Source of the DNA: a virus
Taxonomy: Duplodnaviria > Heunggongvirae > Uroviricota > Caudoviricetes > Demerecviridae
Length of the DNA: 64,000 bases
Direction: 5' to 3' (one strand)
IMG/VR virus record: IMGVR_UViG_2974655058_000001
Span: 7,652 to 71,651 of that record
Part shown: positions 7,555 through 44,934 of the stretch, one piece after another
How positions within the stretch are numbered: position 1 is the first letter of the stretch
Layout: the number at the start of each line of letters is the position of its first letter
Notes under the pieces: model-generated
Database searches by the model: none
Told to the model about the DNA's origin: nothing
Seen by the model: only the letters and a program-made list of their open reading frames with translations
Position numbers and translations under genes: made by a program

Positions 7555-7832
7555 TTTTTAATCTCCGTGATTATCTGTGTACGCATTACTTTAGCGGGTA
7601 ATTTATTATTACCAATTATTGCCTCGATATTATTTAATTTTTCTTTAAGAATATCTGAGCGTCTTTGTGCTAATTCAATATCTTGCTCTTGCTCTAGCAA
7701 GCGGTGGTGTAGCCCATCATTAGTAATGAGCATACTTTCCATGTTTTTCCGTGCATTCACAATCCCAATAACTCCACCAATCGCTACTAGCGTAGTAAGA
7801 ATTAGTAACCCAATAAGAATTTCTATAATCAT
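7551..7832 (-). CDS. membrane protein (TM plus coiled coil)
   Basis: N-terminal TM helix. Confidence 0.5.
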   Translation of the reverse strand: MIIEILIGLLILTTLVAIGGVIGIVNARKNMESMLITNDGLHHRLLEQEQDIELAQRRSDILKEKLNNIEAIIGNNKLPAKVMRTQIITEIKK

Positions 7833-28783: not shown

Positions 28784-28861
28784 TGGTGGCTCCCCGAGGA
28801 TTCGAACCTACGTACCTTCCGGTTATGAGCCGGGTGCTCATACCATATGAGCTTGAGAACC
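28784..28861 (-). tRNA. tRNA (anticodon CAT), third CAT species
   Basis: acceptor GGTTCTC/GGGAGCC with G-U pairs, loop CTCATAA. Confidence 0.6.
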
Positions 28862-29496: not shown

Positions 29497-29671
29497 ACTA
29501 GATTCCTCTCTCAAATTTATAAATATATTATACAGAGAATTTAGCATTCAAGCAATTGAATTTTTTAACTTTTTAGAGGAAAATCACAGGATGCTTAAGG
29601 GTAGCAGGTAAGTGGTCAGGACCGAAATTTGTGACCCCACTAAAAATCTGTGGGCAATTTTTAAAGACCCC

Positions 29672-29700
29672 TTGACATTTTTGCTGGGGTAGTGTAAAGT
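29672..29700 (+). promoter_or_regulatory. consensus sigma70 promoter for the plus-strand cassette
   Basis: TTGACA, 17-nt spacer, TAAAGT. Confidence 0.65.
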
Positions 29701-29762
29701 ATATGTTATGGATGAGTGATCAAAGAGACACACATTTTCTATATACTAGGAGGTGTCAAAAA

Positions 29763-30743
29763 ATGACAGAAGAAGTAGCTAAGAGTCCTGAAACCGTCGC
29801 TAGCGTAGCAGCAGAACTGCATCGTCACGAGGAATCAGATAAGAAAAAGTGGGAGAAAGTCAAAGCCTACGAAGAAGAACATCGTGAACACGATGAAGAT
29901 GATGAAGAAGATGACGATGATGAACATTGTCATAAATATGGAAAACATAAAATGCAAGAACCAGTAAACGTATTTACTAACGGCTTCCCTGGCATGGGTG
30001 CATTCCCAGCTAACGCAAGTGCTTTCGGTGGAGAAGGTATGGGTCTATTCGGAGCTATCTTAATCGGTGCTCTATTAACAGGCGGATTTGGTGGGTTTGG
30101 TGGTTTTGGTCGCGGTGCTGGCGTTGCCGCTGAAGGAACTGCTGTGGACGCGATCCTTTCTAACCAAGATACTGCAAGTATTCTAGCTGCAATTAACACT
30201 ACTCGTACAGAAGCTAACCAGGGCACTGGGGCTGTTCTAAGTGCAGTAAACGGTGTGGGAGCTGCTCAAGCTGCTAGCACTCAGCAAGTTCTGACTACTA
30301 TCTACGGTACAGGTGCTAATCTGTCAAACCAGATCTGTGCTGAAACTCGTAACGTTATTCAGGGTCAGTTCGATCTTTCTCGTCAGATGGATCAATCTTT
30401 CGCTGCTAACCAGATAGCACGTGCTCAAGATAAGTTTGACTCTGCTCAGATTGCTTTCCAGCAGTCTATTCAGACCAACAACCAGTTTGCCGCTGTTCAG
30501 GCTCAGATGTGCGCTAACCAGAACGCTATCGAACGTCAGCTTGCGGAATGTTGCTGTGAGCTTCAGACTGCGATCGCTGGTGTAACTACTGCACGTATCC
30601 AGGACGAACTGAATGAATGCCGTCTGCGCGAAGCAATCGCTGCAGGTAGCGGTGCAAATGGTCAGGTAATCAACCAAATCGCTGTAAGTCTTGGTGCTAT
30701 CACTCAGACTCTGGCTGGTCTGCAGGCTAAACTGCCGGCTTAA
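29763..30743 (+). CDS. low-complexity G/A/Q-rich protein (His/acidic N-terminus, GFGGFGGFG hydrophobic segment)
   Basis: AGGAGG RBS 7 nt before the ATG at 29763 (the ORF track starts at an upstream in-frame ATG, 29703); host-like codon usage. Confidence 0.6.
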   Translation: MTEEVAKSPETVASVAAELHRHEESDKKKWEKVKAYEEEHREHDEDDEEDDDDEHCHKYGKHKMQEPVNVFTNGFPGMGAFPANASAFGGEGMGLFGAILIGALLTGGFGGFGGFGRGAGVAAEGTAVDAILSNQDTASILAAINTTRTEANQGTGAVLSAVNGVGAAQAASTQQVLTTIYGTGANLSNQICAETRNVIQGQFDLSRQMDQSFAANQIARAQDKFDSAQIAFQQSIQTNNQFAAVQAQMCANQNAIERQLAECCCELQTAIAGVTTARIQDELNECRLREAIAAGSGANGQVINQIAVSLGAITQTLAGLQAKLPA

Positions 30744-30764
30744 AATTAAGGGGAGGAGCCCATT

Positions 30765-31193
30765 ATGAGTAAATATGGTTTTGTGAACAACGGATTTAAT
30801 CAACCAATGGGCTCCCAGCAGCCCGTTCCGGGTCTGGATAATCCTTACCTACAACAGTTGCAACAGCGTTTAGCAGAAGCGCAACAGATGCAGCAACAAC
30901 TCCAGCAAAACCCTGGAAGTGTGAGTCCTATGCAAATGATGCAGCAAATGAGCGGGCAGTCGCAAATGCCTCAACAAATGCATCAACAGGTGGCTCAGCA
31001 ACAAGTTCAGCAGCAAGTTCAGCAGCAAACCCAACAACCGCAGGTTTCTGCGGAAGGACAGGCAGTACTAGCCCTTTTCGAAGACTTCGCAAAGACAGAG
31101 GATGGGAAGCAGCTTGTATCACTTATGGGTAAGTTTAATAGCTTCTGCCAAAGCCAAATTGCAAAAGCTCAAAATAGCGGTAATAACTCCTAA
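30765..31193 (+). CDS. Q/N-rich prion-like low-complexity protein
   Basis: GGGGAGGAG RBS; poly-Q/QQ-V repeats. Confidence 0.6.
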   Translation: MSKYGFVNNGFNQPMGSQQPVPGLDNPYLQQLQQRLAEAQQMQQQLQQNPGSVSPMQMMQQMSGQSQMPQQMHQQVAQQQVQQQVQQQTQQPQVSAEGQAVLALFEDFAKTEDGKQLVSLMGKFNSFCQSQIAKAQNSGNNS

Positions 31194-31202
31194 GGAGGAA
31201 TT

Positions 31203-31397
31203 ATGTGTTGCAGAAAATCTGTTTCGTGCTGCCCAATGCATGTAGCACGTTGTTGCTCTCCAGCAATGTTTACGCAAATACCGGCGTTCAATCCGTTTGC
31301 CTTTAAGCCTACTCTTATCCTGCCCCCTAGAGTAGATTTTCAGTCAAGATTGGCCTCCCGTATGGGTGGTTGCTGTAACAAGAGTATATGGTTCTAA
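31203..31397 (+). CDS. Cys-rich peptide with four CC doublets (64 aa)
   Basis: AAGGAGG RBS 5 nt before the ATG; MCC..SCC..RCC..GCC. Confidence 0.45.
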   Translation: MCCRKSVSCCPMHVARCCSPAMFTQIPAFNPFAFKPTLILPPRVDFQSRLASRMGGCCNKSIWF

Positions 31398-31410
31398 GGA
31401 ACCAAACAAT

Positions 31411-31447
31411 AAAGCCCCTAGTCGAAAGACTTAGGGGCTTTTCTTTT
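31411..31447 (+). terminator. rho-independent terminator ending the plus-strand cassette
   Basis: AAGCCCCTAGTC-GAAA-GACTTAGGGGCTTTTCTTTT. Confidence 0.7.
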
Positions 31448-31462
31448 ATCTTAAATACAGAA

Positions 31463-31500
31463 AAGCCCGCGCTCTCGGAGGAAACGCGGGCTTGGTTCGA
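31463..31500 (-). terminator. rho-independent terminator for the SPFH gene (minus strand)
   Basis: GCCCGCG...CGCGGGC stem followed by TTTTCTGTATTT on the minus strand. Confidence 0.65.
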
Positions 31501-31516
31501 AGATTACGTGTAACTA

Positions 31517-32464
31517 TTACTTGTTACGCATATCCATGATCATTTGACCATCGTAGCCAGTACCTACTACAGTCTGAGGCACACCACCTTGATATTTCTG
31601 AGCACGAATCATCTCAACTTCCAGTTGTTTCCAACGAATCATCTCAGGAGTAATGGTACGTTGCAGTGCGGCGTTAGCTTCAGCTTCTTTCTTAGCTGCG
31701 TACAGTTTAGCATCTGCGTCACGTTCATTAGCGATAGCTTGGTTGTTGCGAGCTTCACGATCTGCTTCTGCTTGTTTAACTTTTTGCTGTGCTTCCTGTT
31801 CAACACGAGCTAATTCAGCTTTAGCAGCATTAACCTGTTCTTCACGAACTTTGGTATTCTGTACCTGTTCCATGATTACCGGTGGCAAAGTAATATCCTG
31901 AAGGAATACCTGCTTAACTGTGTAACCATATGGGCGTGCATACTCTTCAACTTCCTGTTGAATTGCAGTTTGCAATTGAGCCTGAATTTTAGCATCAAAC
32001 AAATCTTGTGCTTTAGGTACAGACTTACCAAACTCACGAATAGTAGACAGTAATTTTTCAGTTACATACTTGTCTAGTGCCTGATCCTGAGTACCTGCAT
32101 TAATACGGTTAATCGGTGCCTTAGAACCATCAAACTGCAACATAACAGTCAGGTCAACAGTGGATTTAAACTTATCCTGACTAGGAACCTGAAGTTTATC
32201 TAATTTTACAGCAATATCTTTTGTACTGAAAGTATCGAAAGATGCAAACGGGTTTACAATATGGAAACCAGGTAATACTGGATTAGGGTCTACTTTACCC
32301 AGGAATGTTTGAGTTTTAACCGTACCATCAGAAACAATAGTATATGAATTAAAAGCTAGGATTAAACCTGCTAAACCAACTACAGCACCAATCCCCCAAC
32401 GTTTAATAGTACGAATTACTTTCTGCTCAGAAGTTAGTTCTTTCATATTTTTAGTATTAAACAT
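31517..32464 (-). CDS. SPFH/band-7 (prohibitin/HflK/C-like) membrane protein
   Basis: N-terminal TM, SPFH core, long C-terminal coiled coil EAQQKVKQAEADREARN... Confidence 0.7.
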   Translation of the reverse strand: MFNTKNMKELTSEQKVIRTIKRWGIGAVVGLAGLILAFNSYTIVSDGTVKTQTFLGKVDPNPVLPGFHIVNPFASFDTFSTKDIAVKLDKLQVPSQDKFKSTVDLTVMLQFDGSKAPINRINAGTQDQALDKYVTEKLLSTIREFGKSVPKAQDLFDAKIQAQLQTAIQQEVEEYARPYGYTVKQVFLQDITLPPVIMEQVQNTKVREEQVNAAKAELARVEQEAQQKVKQAEADREARNNQAIANERDADAKLYAAKKEAEANAALQRTITPEMIRWKQLEVEMIRAQKYQGGVPQTVVGTGYDGQMIMDMRNK

Positions 32465-33075: not shown

Positions 33076-33147
33076 TACCGACCGTAGGATTCGAACCTAC
33101 ATCTTCCACCAGTTACGGCTTGATAATACCAATTATACTAGGACGGC
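33076..33147 (-). pseudogene. degenerate tRNA-like sequence (canonical T-arm and acceptor-like termini, no anticodon arm, no CCA)
   Basis: GTAGGTTCGAATCCTAC T-arm; GCCGTCC/GGTCGGT termini with one mismatch. Confidence 0.35.
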
Positions 33148-34862: not shown

Positions 34863-35304
34863 AATAGCCTCGTTTCATCAATTTAAAAATATATTATACA
34901 GAAAACTTAATAAATTAGCAAATACATTTTTAAATTGTGAAACTAGTAAACCGATAAACAGCCTAGAGGCGCCACAGGCCATATCTTACGAGCCATGTAC
35001 CTTTGATCTAGGGTTTGGATCATCAACGAATACTTTGCATCTTTTAGCTTTAGAAGTTTAGAAGTTTGAGTTCTTTAAACTTTTCAGCTTTCATACTTAA
35101 ATGTTGATCTTTGAAGTTGTGTCGGTAATATCAACGACTCTTTGTTTTTACGTGTCAGATTAAATGTCTGATGTAATAAACATAATCTCCAATAGATTAT
35201 ACTTTATAGTATGGTCAGCGGTCTTATTTAACCTCGTATTTCAACCGCTGCTGCGAGGTAAGATGCTTGGGCTTTCGTCTACCGATTTACTAGCTTTTAA
35301 ATTA

Positions 35305-35943
35305 TTACTCTACTTCAATGAAAGTAGAGGCGTTAGACTCGGACAGAACAAAATCAACATTTGTTGCAAAGTCCTGGTATTCCTCGTCATGCTGTTTAAT
35401 CAGCTTCTCCAGTTCCAGCGGATCAATCAAGAATGGAGTATTCTTGAGTTCCAACAGGTTGAGCTGCATTTTAACTTCATCTTCGGAAGTTTTCTTATCG
35501 CGGGTAGCCATGCTATCCTGCAAACGCTCATATTTAGCATCAAACTGTGCTTTCTGCGTATTAAACTTAACCGTAGCGGCATGGAACTGCTTACGCATGT
35601 TAGCCAGCAGTTGAGCTTTAAGTTCCATAGAACGCTTAGCTTCAATTGCTTCCGCAACAGTCATCTTACGAGAGCCAATCTCAACGATTGTTTCCGCATT
35701 GCTTTTAATCAGAGCAGCTTTGATACGATCACGCTGGGACATCATATCCAGCAGAGACTGGAAATCAGTCTTAATACGAGTAGACAGATCAGCTACTTCG
35801 ATTGCAGCGCCAACTACAACCTGGTTTTTATCCTTACCTTCACCAACAGCGATCAGAAGCTGCTGTTCAGTAGCTTTACGGATTTTAGCTTCCAGAGATT
35901 TGATAGTTGCTAGAGCACGAGTTTTAGAAATACGAGTGGTCAT
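35305..35943 (-). CDS. coiled-coil hypothetical protein with host-optimal codon usage
   Basis: ORF track; rich in ctg/gct/cgt codons. Confidence 0.6.
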   Translation of the reverse strand: MTTRISKTRALATIKSLEAKIRKATEQQLLIAVGEGKDKNQVVVGAAIEVADLSTRIKTDFQSLLDMMSQRDRIKAALIKSNAETIVEIGSRKMTVAEAIEAKRSMELKAQLLANMRKQFHAATVKFNTQKAQFDAKYERLQDSMATRDKKTSEDEVKMQLNLLELKNTPFLIDPLELEKLIKQHDEEYQDFATNVDFVLSESNASTFIEVE

Positions 35944-42603: not shown

Positions 42604-44934
42604 TTAGATAGTACAACCACCAGAAGCACAACCCGCTGCTTCTTCTCCAGCTCCACCACCATTTGCGGTATTGAAGTTAGCGTAATACCAAGTCTTCCAA
42701 CCGTATTTAACAGCAGTCATGAAATCACGAACTACTACTGGGCCAGGAATGATTTCATTCTCAAACTTGGTGTAGTCGTAGTACATATTAGTACTGATAG
42801 ACTGGCTGAAGAATTTCTGCATAGTTGCTACCCATTTGATCCACTCAATACGATCTACATCATAAGCCAGTTTATAGCTCATTAAAGTTTCCCAATCGGT
42901 TGCACCTGGGGCAATTGCAATTACTTTATTCACTGCACTACCCTTTATAGATACAATCTTACGAGGTGGTTCGATAGAGTTAGTAACACCTAACAGAACA
43001 GAGGAACTTTCTCCTGGCATCTGAGCAGTCAGAACAGAGTTACGCATACCGTATTTCAGAATATCTGCACGCAGAGATTCCCAATCCATTTCTAGATCTA
43101 CAGATACCAGCTCATCAACAGTTTTCTTATACGTGTCGATTACCAGAGTTCCTTTGGATGGTTTAGTACGATTAAACCATTCACATGCACCTTGTTCTTT
43201 AGCCAGACGTACAGAGGCTTTATGCAGGAAGTAGGATAGTTTTTCAGCTTCACGATGAATCCAGTTACGTGCTTCAACGCCTTCATAAGCCAGACCTTCT
43301 GCTGCCATTGCACCTGCTGCGTTCATAAGGCCAATACCAACGTTACGACGTTTCTTAGCTGTATATTCCATAGTTGGGAACGGATAATCCTGAATTTCAA
43401 TAATTGTATCAACGAATTTCAAAAGAATATAGCAAGTTTTTTCCCACTCAGCCAGAGATTCCATGCGCCCAAGTACAACACCCCCTAAGTTACACAGAGA
43501 TACTTCACCAATATCCTCCGGCTTCATTTGATCAAGCTGCTCTTTTGTTTTATACAGTTCCGTGATATGATGGAACGGGCGTGTAGGTTGAGTAATTTCA
43601 ACACAAAGGTTTGTCATACGGATCGGATCAAGGAAGTTACCGTGACGATTAGATTCCCCAATGTGGTGAGCATACATACGTCCTGTTTCCATTCGGATAC
43701 GTAGCCAAGTATCTAGGATTTCTTTTGAAGAGACTTTAGGAGCTGCAGGAACTGTTTTTCCTTCGTGGTCGATCTTTGTAAGAGATGCCACACGTTTCTC
43801 CGCTGCCACGTAGATTTCTTCAAATTTAGCCTCGTCATCACTATAAAACGCTTCATGAACTTCTGGAGCATAGAAGTATGACATTAGCGTAATATCTTCG
43901 TTTTTAAGATAACGTTTTAACAAAAGATTGTTGAAGCTCAGAGAATAATCCATCTTATCGATTTTATTCTCATCTGTAGCACGTTGTTGCTTAACCTGCA
44001 TCAATTGAATGATTTCAGGGTCGAAGTATGGATAAGACACTGTAGCAGAACCACCACGAGTTTGCTGAGTATTGGCCTTTACTGAGCGGTCAATGTGTCG
44101 ATAATATGGCAGTTTTCCGGAATGCGGGAATGCCCCATTTCGCACCGGATCAGCAATTGATCGGCTTTCAAGATGATACCCGATTCCCGCTCTGGCTGCG
44201 ACCATTTTGAAGACGATGTGCTCGGCGGTGTCGATTGAATCCAACGTGTCAGTGGAATCCACGAGACAGCAACTAGCAAATCCACGGTCACTAGAGCGCA
44301 GACCAACCAGTGGCGGCGTAGGAACGTTGATTTTGTGGAGTGACATTGCGTTGTAGAGGTCGATTGCATCTAGAATTGTCCAGTTAGGTTGAGAAAGCAT
44401 CGCCATTGCCATACCCATGTAGGCAAACTGCGGGGTTTCATAAATTTCACCAGTGGCTATATTACGACGGGAATACTTATCAAAGAACTGCTTCAGCCCA
44501 CCACTAGTAAAAAGACGGTCACGATCATGGTCGATAACCTGATTCAGAGCCTCAAATTGCTCATCGGTAATCCATGCACTCATGTCTTCCCATGCACCTA
44601 CGCTAACCATGTGGTCATGGAAGAAGCGTAGAGAAGGTGGTTCGAAGGAATCATAAAGGCGTTTACGCATCTGCGCAAGACGTAATTCCTTTGCAGGCAC
44701 GTCGTATGCTGGATTATCTTTGATAAGACTTTCAGCAGCTTTAATTAACGCATCCATCAGAGTATCGGAATCTACAACCCCTTTAGGCAGAGTTTTTTGA
44801 GCAGCCATAGTAATGGCTGACCAACTTACATCAACTGTTTTGCAACCATACTCTGTCCAACCATTGAGTTTTTCAGGAGCAAAGTCTTCTACAGTACCGT
44901 CACGTTTAATTACTTTTTCAATGCGATGGCTCAT
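42604..44934 (-). CDS. nrdA: ribonucleotide reductase class Ia large subunit
   Basis: ATP-cone KVIKRDG, NLCVEITQPT; start placed at MSHRIEKV with an AAGGAAA RBS (the longer ORF extends to 45039). Confidence 0.85.
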   Translation of the reverse strand: MSHRIEKVIKRDGTVEDFAPEKLNGWTEYGCKTVDVSWSAITMAAQKTLPKGVVDSDTLMDALIKAAESLIKDNPAYDVPAKELRLAQMRKRLYDSFEPPSLRFFHDHMVSVGAWEDMSAWITDEQFEALNQVIDHDRDRLFTSGGLKQFFDKYSRRNIATGEIYETPQFAYMGMAMAMLSQPNWTILDAIDLYNAMSLHKINVPTPPLVGLRSSDRGFASCCLVDSTDTLDSIDTAEHIVFKMVAARAGIGYHLESRSIADPVRNGAFPHSGKLPYYRHIDRSVKANTQQTRGGSATVSYPYFDPEIIQLMQVKQQRATDENKIDKMDYSLSFNNLLLKRYLKNEDITLMSYFYAPEVHEAFYSDDEAKFEEIYVAAEKRVASLTKIDHEGKTVPAAPKVSSKEILDTWLRIRMETGRMYAHHIGESNRHGNFLDPIRMTNLCVEITQPTRPFHHITELYKTKEQLDQMKPEDIGEVSLCNLGGVVLGRMESLAEWEKTCYILLKFVDTIIEIQDYPFPTMEYTAKKRRNVGIGLMNAAGAMAAEGLAYEGVEARNWIHREAEKLSYFLHKASVRLAKEQGACEWFNRTKPSKGTLVIDTYKKTVDELVSVDLEMDWESLRADILKYGMRNSVLTAQMPGESSSVLLGVTNSIEPPRKIVSIKGSAVNKVIAIAPGATDWETLMSYKLAYDVDRIEWIKWVATMQKFFSQSISTNMYYDYTKFENEIIPGPVVVRDFMTAVKYGWKTWYYANFNTANGGGAGEEAAGCASGGCTI

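Follow-up and report, generated by a model that had tools for sequence, protein, structure and literature searches.

A possibly membrane-associated, apparently dispensable three-gene cassette on the opposite strand of the tRNA region of T5-like phages

Why do T5-like phages carry, within their tRNA region and on the strand opposite to the genes around it, a small operon whose products have stayed without a function? We address this question in a 64,000-nucleotide stretch of a Demerecviridae genome (IMG/VR record IMGVR_UViG_2974655058_000001, positions 7,652 to 71,651), hereafter the window, in which the cassette forms a 1.9-kb stretch that shares 100% identity with the T5-like Salmonella phage VSe12 and 95-97% with phages T5 and BF23. 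Its genes 1, 2 and 3 are the counterparts of T5.077, T5.078 and T5.079, the last being an unnamed 64-aa coding sequence in the T5 record; the BF23 record names them 'ORF 326aa/138aa/64aa', and all three are hypothetical proteins in GenBank. T5 is a classical model phage, and this strongly expressed-looking operon has been 'hypothetical' since the annotations of 2004-2005. The anatomy of the cassette was already on record in the curated T5 and BF23 entries and its function was not; the novelty lies in the protein families and in what they may do. We find that the three open reading frames are real genes, that they travel together between unrelated phages and that, to judge from genome comparison, T5-like phages can do without them. 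The explanation that we tentatively favour, as a possibility still short of being probable, is that the cassette encodes a coiled-coil complex that associates with the membrane, is expressed early, is held together by cysteines and can be dispensed with, and that this complex would bring a conditional benefit early in infection.

The cassette is a genuine self-contained transcription unit of early type, with its own promoter and terminator. An original prediction, made from the letters of the window alone, had described an antisense unit within the tRNA region, and the VSe12 RefSeq annotation agrees, as it places solely minus-strand coding sequences on either side; tRNA genes are found on both flanks. 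The consensus sigma-70 promoter of that prediction (TTGACA-17-TAAAGT, plus strand, 29672-29700) is recovered by our scan and equals T5 promoter P12 (T5P21), which is annotated in both the T5 and the BF23 records and labelled 'early promoter' in T5. By itself the match is no better than chance, the scan having found 3 sites against 3.2 expected; the site scores 10/12, lies within a block that is ~97% identical among five T5-like phages and is kept with the same spacing in two divergent T5-like contigs (L007 and L008). Taken together, the consensus -35 box and the T5 annotation suggest early expression. Downstream on the plus strand follow gene 1 (29763-30743, 326 aa), gene 2 (30765-31193, 142 aa) and gene 3 (31203-31397, 64 aa), each preceded, as had been claimed, by a strong AGGAGG-type ribosome-binding site. 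The in-frame ATG upstream of the gene 1 start (29703) coincides with the expected transcription start or precedes it, which makes the 326-aa reading, as in BF23, the sensible one; the length first proposed was 327 aa. The unit ends in an intrinsic terminator (plus strand, 31411-31449), whose hairpin (31411-31441; 12-bp stem with one bulge, GAAA loop, folding free energy -20 kcal/mol) is followed by a U-tract and which the T5 record labels 'efficient bidirectional rho-independent terminator'. An equivalent hairpin and U-tract follow gene 3 in L007, L008 and the lambdoid-type contig L009. As the original prediction also had it, this terminator stands back-to-back with a minus-strand one (31463-31493), that of the convergent SPFH/band-7 gene, and the two fold together (z = -5.0). 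An Rfam scan returns no family within the cassette.

Are open reading frames of such composition translated at all? The strong compositional bias and the omission of gene 3 from the VSe12 RefSeq could suggest untranslated low-complexity artefacts, yet we hold this explanation to be practically negligible. Pairwise Nei-Gojobori estimates among five T5-like phages give ratios of nonsynonymous to synonymous substitution rates (dN/dS) of 0.11-0.21 for gene 1, 0.07-0.31 for gene 2 and, from small counts, mostly 0.1-0.4 for gene 3 with one pair at 0.59, all well under 1. Insertions and deletions in the acidic/His stretch of gene 1 and in the Q-rich linker of gene 2 preserve the reading frame, the ribosome-binding sites are strong, and trios homologous to this one are found in phages that differ greatly in composition and host. 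The three open reading frames are real genes under purifying selection. Their base composition, on the other hand, had been taken for host-optimised codon usage, and this does not hold. Overall GC content of the cassette is 0.47 against ~0.35-0.42 in neighbouring genes, but by codon position gene 1 has a GC content of 0.63 (first), 0.44 (second) and 0.34 (third, GC3), the last typical of the phage, given ~0.25-0.39 in other genes of the window. Confined as it is to codon positions 1 and 2, the excess in gene 1 reflects the Ala/Gly/Gln-rich content of the protein; only in gene 2 is GC3 somewhat raised (0.45).

The claim that the products are unlike described phage systems, in contrast, stands. 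Scans of the three proteins against Pfam, NCBIfam and PADLOC find no family, and the PHROGs that they match are solely of unknown function (8119 for gene 1, E = 5e-198; 7894 for gene 2). Forty-five members of the gene 1 family, scanned against the same collections, likewise yield nothing characterised. No homologue with an assigned function was found, and the reading frames are conserved.

How, then, is the cassette distributed, and does its pattern speak of recent gain, for which the original prediction would take patchiness as support? Part of the region is matched by blastn in 410 phage records, 218 of which cover most of it, and gene 1 is found by tblastn in 223 records, so that the distribution among T5-like phages is indeed patchy. 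We sampled the cassette-less phages Seafire and rutana (Epseptimavirus) and Gostya9 (Tequintavirus). In these, homology ends at 29609 and restarts at 31366, the junction being identical in all three, and the absent segment (29610-31365, 1,756 bp) takes in the promoter, the whole of genes 1 and 2 and gene 3 as far as codon 54. What persists are the terminators and the last ten codons of gene 3 (CCNKSIWF and the stop), including a conserved CC. This gene 3 remnant indicates that loss, not gain, lies behind the patchiness in the T5-like lineage. Recent acquisition is further contradicted by the phage-typical GC3 of gene 1 and by the identical deletion in phages of two genera. The simplest reading of these alignments is that the cassette is ancestral in T5-like phages and that a single 1,756-bp deletion has spread or recurred. 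The cassette-less genomes show the cassette to be dispensable for T5-like phages, as far as genome comparison can tell.

Beyond the T5-like phages, the full trio, its order unchanged, is present in the lambdoid-type contig L009, where it is divergently placed, on the opposite strand and beside holin, lysozyme and Rz, and in Pseudomonas phage KPP23 (L017), beside the terminase region. Among the T5-like contigs themselves, gene 1 identity falls to ~40-46% in the divergent L007 and L008. The three cassette genes thus travel together between unrelated phages. The original prediction suggested that they act jointly with the adjacent SPFH/band-7 scaffold (31517-32464, minus strand; Pfam Band_7, E = 1.8e-17) to form membrane microdomains or condensates. 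The adjacency itself is beyond dispute; the SPFH gene is a convergent neighbour with a terminator region common to both, it is likely, as is the cassette, to concern a membrane-associated product, and the Gln content of gene 2 (44% over 72 residues) would suit a condensate. The joint module, however, we regard as very unlikely. The SPFH gene is found in every T5-like phage examined, cassette-bearing or cassette-less, and so persists alone; it is transcribed separately from the cassette, from the opposite strand; the KPP23 annotation lists no such gene, and the families recorded around the cassette in the lambdoid contig include no SPFH, so that adjacency is not conserved outside T5-like phages. 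In addition, the cassette differs from the usual SPFH/band-7 partners (e.g. NfeD) in having no NfeD-like domain.

The reading of a membrane-associated complex starts from the architecture of gene 1. From its N-terminus on, the protein has a helix, a linker rich in acidic residues and His, a hydrophobic segment rich in Gly (residues 94-118) and ~200 aa of predicted helices, with a CCC triplet at residues 263-265. The composition described in the original prediction is confirmed, with 24% E, 13% D and 11% H in the N-terminal 62 residues, 30% G in residues 63-125 and an A/Q/T-rich tail. The CCC triplet is invariant in alignments A1 and A3 and is present in 40 of the 45 members of alignment A2; in 22 of these 45 it makes up all the cysteine content. 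We propose that gene 1 would anchor in, or insert into, the cytoplasmic membrane via the hydrophobic segment and oligomerise via its helical region, and that the CCC triplet may staple the oligomer, through disulfides between chains or a thiolate-metal site common to them. Two partners could then bind the gene 1 scaffold, namely the Q-rich protein of gene 2 and the basic, CC-rich peptide of gene 3, the latter perhaps by charge complementarity (+7 against -13 for the N-terminal region of gene 1). Such an envelope-associated complex would act outside core replication, assembly and lysis and may give an early conditional advantage by altering membrane properties, by excluding competitors or by countering a host response.

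In gene 2, an N-terminal helix motif and a C-terminal domain of ~45 aa with one invariant Cys are conserved, and the Q/P-rich linker between them is variable. Its residues 26-97 (72 residues) contain 44% Q and 3% N, so that of the 'Q/N-rich prion-like' description the Q-rich part is borne out and the N-rich part is not, and nowhere else in the protein are indels as frequent or conservation as low as in this segment. A homologue search returns 118 sequences, all in T5-like contexts, to which alignment A4 adds the lambdoid and KPP23 copies, and a profile search of the PDB gives no match. In several records (AY587007, ESCO30/40, Seabear, EH3 and UTK0010) gene 2 bears the label 'cAMP-dependent protein kinase catalytic subunit (kapc)'. 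We tried this assignment and rejected it, as the Pfam and NCBIfam scans find no kinase family and just sub-threshold low-complexity hits; the label looks like a propagated low-complexity artefact and can be corrected.

Gene 3 is, as described, a 64-aa peptide with four CC doublets (residues 2, 9, 17 and 57). It is basic (+7) and Pro- and Cys-rich, with 8 cysteines (12%), begins MCCRKS and is 87.5-98% identical across six T5-like phages. Recognisable homologues lie in the lambdoid-type contig (L009, 6444-6719) and in KPP23 (L017, 5969-6151); homologues begin MCC or MSCNC and have an internal CC, and the copies outside T5-like phages add a C-terminal GGCC or GRCC. In KPP23 the deposited ORF072 (L017, 5971-6165, GTG start) is in a frame different from that of the conserved 60-aa MCC...CC peptide, and its annotation is probably in the wrong frame. 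A separate observation concerns the middle of gene 3 (31232-31366), where nucleotide identity among five T5-like phages is 97-98%, equal to that of the promoter. The synonymous rate for the same phage pairs is 0-0.23 in gene 3, far below that in genes 1 and 2 (0.07-1.07), and the sense strand of 31232-31366 folds with z = -3.0 against -0.5 in a control stretch, variation being too small for covariation analysis. An overlapping constraint in this part of gene 3, e.g. an mRNA structure, is possible.

So many cysteines and histidines raise the question of whether the cassette handles metal or redox instead, its His/acidic stretch, CCC triplet and CC-rich peptide binding a soft metal or a centre of Fe-S type. 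In support of this, relatives show runs of His in the N-terminal region of gene 1 (HHYHHHHHEH is one example), eiAU-type modules encode a His-rich protein of its own directly behind the family gene, and ferritin-like proteins are encoded near the family gene in L062 and in L004, the match in L004 falling short of the Pfam cut-off (E = 6e-4). Still, we consider this reading improbable: no part of gene 1 is less conserved than the His/acidic stretch, which most of the family lacks, of a metallothionein-like Cys array in gene 3 only the N-terminal MCC and one internal CC are widely kept among copies, and the family scans detect no known metal-binding domain in the cassette proteins. As for the His-rich neighbour (phrog_9157), we considered whether the gene 1 N-terminal region is a fused form of it, and rejected this idea for lack of any similarity between the two. 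A comparable candidate, the Q-rich neighbour in L050 as a gene 2 homologue, was discarded for the same reason.

The gene 1 family turns out to be far larger than the trio. A gene 1 profile searched against 1.84 billion representative proteins retrieves 421 clusters at E <= 1e-3, 67 of them at E <= 1e-10, and a profile of the short form retrieves 403 clusters at E <= 1e-5, nearly all metagenomic; these 403 contain no Pfam domain, and all their recorded names are 'hypothetical protein'. The PHROGs to which family members belong (8119, 9288 and 16490) likewise have no assigned function. Most relatives are 240-290 aa long, do not have the acidic/His N-terminal domain and start with the Gly-rich hydrophobic stretch; the family motifs are NFTTLxSINGLGRD, LNSFN, QGFN, CCC and DGxATRALIN. 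Recurring nearby are Q-rich proteins, a His-rich protein and ferritin-like proteins, and in Seuratvirus STP-SP5 a small protein that starts 'MCGNACC'. In 31 of 36 IMG/VR loci a conserved protein of ~98 aa follows the gene 1 relative, often in a five-gene block. This block (L018-L053, e.g. L045, 5547-7582) is headed by a short-form relative, then by the ~98-aa protein, which is beta-rich, and by proteins of 58, 87-105 and 154-160 aa; it moves, as a set of small unknown genes, among the head, tail and early regions of different phages, and ferritin-like genes and a radical-SAM gene lie close to it in some loci.

Where these relatives reside matters for a different explanation, in which the gene 1 family serves the virion or its assembly as a coiled-coil protein, be it structural, scaffolding or chaperone, that T5-like phages express from a separate promoter. 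Short-form relatives lie directly 3' of the major head protein in portal-scaffold-capsid modules, and others directly 3' of tail-fibre/host-specificity genes (eiAU, STP-SP5, the myovirus-like contig L004 and L060), as one would expect of such a protein. The T5-like cassette, however, is driven by a consensus sigma-70 promoter from the other strand of the early tRNA region, and about half of the genomes have lost it by deletion while their structural genes are unchanged. Moreover, sites after capsid and fibre genes are classic accessory insertion spots, and in L062 a relative is found among early/metabolic genes. We therefore judge a virion role to be unlikely, though it deserves to be taken seriously.

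Some gene 1 relatives lie near endolysin and holin-like genes, which brings up lysis. Could the cassette be a device that perturbs or fuses membranes, i.e. an auxiliary spanin-like or influenza HA2-like element acting in lysis timing, vesiculation or membrane contact? The general build is suggestive, with a Gly-rich hydrophobic peptide ahead of a long predicted helix that is heptad-like and contains conserved Cys. In comparison with Rz/Rz1 spanins, the cassette likewise has a larger protein with an N-proximal hydrophobic segment, a coiled-coil region and conserved Cys, and a small Pro-/Cys-rich partner downstream. It differs in its early-type promoter, in its location outside the lysis cassette and in a third, Q-rich protein that has no spanin counterpart. 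Gene 3 and all its homologues have neither a hydrophobic signal peptide nor a lipobox, so that gene 3 is not an o-spanin. Of the traits of an i-spanin, gene 1 shows a hydrophobic segment and long predicted helices, and a 90-aa acidic N-terminal domain precedes that segment. T5-like phages have a holin, an endolysin and Rz-like spanins in a lysis cassette of their own (PMC4342426, PMC11664485). The lambdoid contig L009 has its own Rz. We rejected the cassette as the phage's spanin because of the missing lipobox and the canonical spanins elsewhere. Endolysins of Amidase type and small membrane proteins adjoin some of the relatives, possibly a sign of hosts with a single membrane.

The likeness to HA2 comes from a profile search of PDB sequences, in which the short-form alignment retrieves almost only influenza HA2 chains (best E = 3e-4), HA2 being the sole structure family so retrieved. 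The aligned part begins midway through the fusion peptide and extends across the Gly-rich linker and helix A; the score is just ~23 bits, and with the broader gene 1 profile E is ~0.03. A reversed-sequence control profile gives a single match, to lamin, at E = 0.047. Both proteins have a Gly-rich hydrophobic peptide and a Gly/Ala linker, followed by a long N/Q-rich helix that in gene 1 is predicted at low confidence, and in VSe12 and T5 the hydrophobic segment starts GLFGAI, as in HA2, a hexapeptide that is not conserved across the family. By contrast, gene 1 has no C-terminal hydrophobic segment of transmembrane length to serve as an anchor, no receptor-binding partner and no sign of a cleavage site or of a trimer of hairpins, and the setting is a bacterial host with no enveloped virion. 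The resemblance weakly suggests something beyond shared composition and is far from proof of homology. On this footing a membrane-fusing or membrane-perturbing device appears to us a rather poor prospect. A broader proposal is slightly more speculative still: the gene 1 family might be a widespread, unrecognised group of phage membrane-inserting proteins of HA2-like build (Gly-rich fusion-peptide-like segment, long coiled coil, cysteine cluster) that remodel or fuse bacterial membranes with lineage-specific small partners, a counterpart or distant relative of class I fusion proteins and distinct from spanins. A parallel with keratin and keratin-associated proteins (Gly-rich head, coiled-coil rod, CC-rich small partner) was also considered and set aside as analogy only, the lamin match coming solely from the reversed control.

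A question remains, how well does the favoured reading, a cysteine-held coiled-coil complex at the membrane, withstand the evidence? Several observations weigh against it. AlphaFold2 models of VSe12 gene 1 (18 sequences) and of a short-form member (12 sequences) both consist of long helices, but with pLDDT (predicted local distance difference test) values of 49.5 and 51.7, a low confidence that fixes neither fold nor oligomer state. The hydrophobic segment recurs across the family, which speaks for the reading (best 19-residue Kyte-Doolittle score 1.72 in VSe12 gene 1, family median 1.54, values >=1.6 in 21 of 45 members), but roughly half of the members have too much Gly in it for a classical transmembrane helix. 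The charges flanking the segment weakly favour an N-out/C-in orientation, a poor fit with the acidic N-terminal domain of 90 residues. Genes 2 and 3 carry no export signals, and of the four CC doublets in gene 3 just two are retained in the divergent T5-like contigs L007 and L008. The presence of short-form relatives in head, tail-fibre and lysis neighbourhoods makes a structural or assembly role equally conceivable. Finally, our literature searches on T5.077-079, the T5 tRNA region, T5 transcriptomes and T5 toxic-gene screens turned up no experimental data on any of the three proteins.

As a genetic element the cassette is reminiscent of morons (lambda bor/lom, HK97 gp15), with which it has in common a promoter and terminator of its own, an orientation opposite to its neighbours, dispensability, patchy distribution and occurrence in unrelated phages at typical accessory sites, such as beside lysis genes or behind tail-fibre and capsid genes. 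It differs from them in that it resides in a virulent phage with no lysogenic conversion, its products resemble no known moron product, its GC3 is not foreign (0.34 in gene 1), and it appears to be ancestral in T5-like phages and lost by deletion. The operon is now linked with a family that numbers its clusters in the hundreds, is spread over both siphovirus-like and myovirus-like phages and has no Pfam entry and no name. Given that nature provides isogenic-like pairs, separated by a clean 1.76-kb deletion, and that T5 has genetic tools, the function is directly testable; a membrane-active coiled-coil complex, if true, would represent a new type of accessory envelope function in phage biology.

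The surroundings of the cassette yield further observations. Upstream of its site, a gene for a NadR-like nicotinamide-nucleotide adenylyltransferase is found in Epseptimavirus loci (L014, L015 and L056-L059) with or without the cassette, paired in Seafire and rutana with a PnuC transporter gene; Sw2, IrmaTschudi, STG2 and EscoHU1, of the same genus, retain the cassette beside the inserted NadR/PnuC pair. On the other side, in EscoHU1 (L059, 2200-2730), a minus-strand HNH endonuclease gene lies between gene 3 and the SPFH gene, in the terminator/nick region. Within the stem of the minus-strand terminator, a GCGC (31469-31472) falls, when mapped by position, where T5 has its annotated major single-strand nick (32.6%) and where a nick is annotated in BF23; the motif is retained in cassette-less phages. 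The SPFH gene is named 'lipoprotein' in RefSeq and in PHROG 200, a second label that can be corrected, since its N-terminus is a plain hydrophobic segment with no cysteine and hence no lipobox. Two minus-strand tRNA-like sequences detected by Rfam (28787-28861, 40.3 bits, and 33076-33147, 35.5 bits) go unreported by ARAGORN; at their positions the VSe12 RefSeq has tRNA-Met and 'tRNA-OTHER', and the second matches, by gene order, the region of the stable 'RNAX' annotated in T5. Further along the window, a plus-strand open reading frame (35164-35913, 249 aa) with an unusually high GC3 of 0.53 overlaps the minus-strand RefSeq 'tail fiber protein' coding sequence (VSe12 42956-43594).

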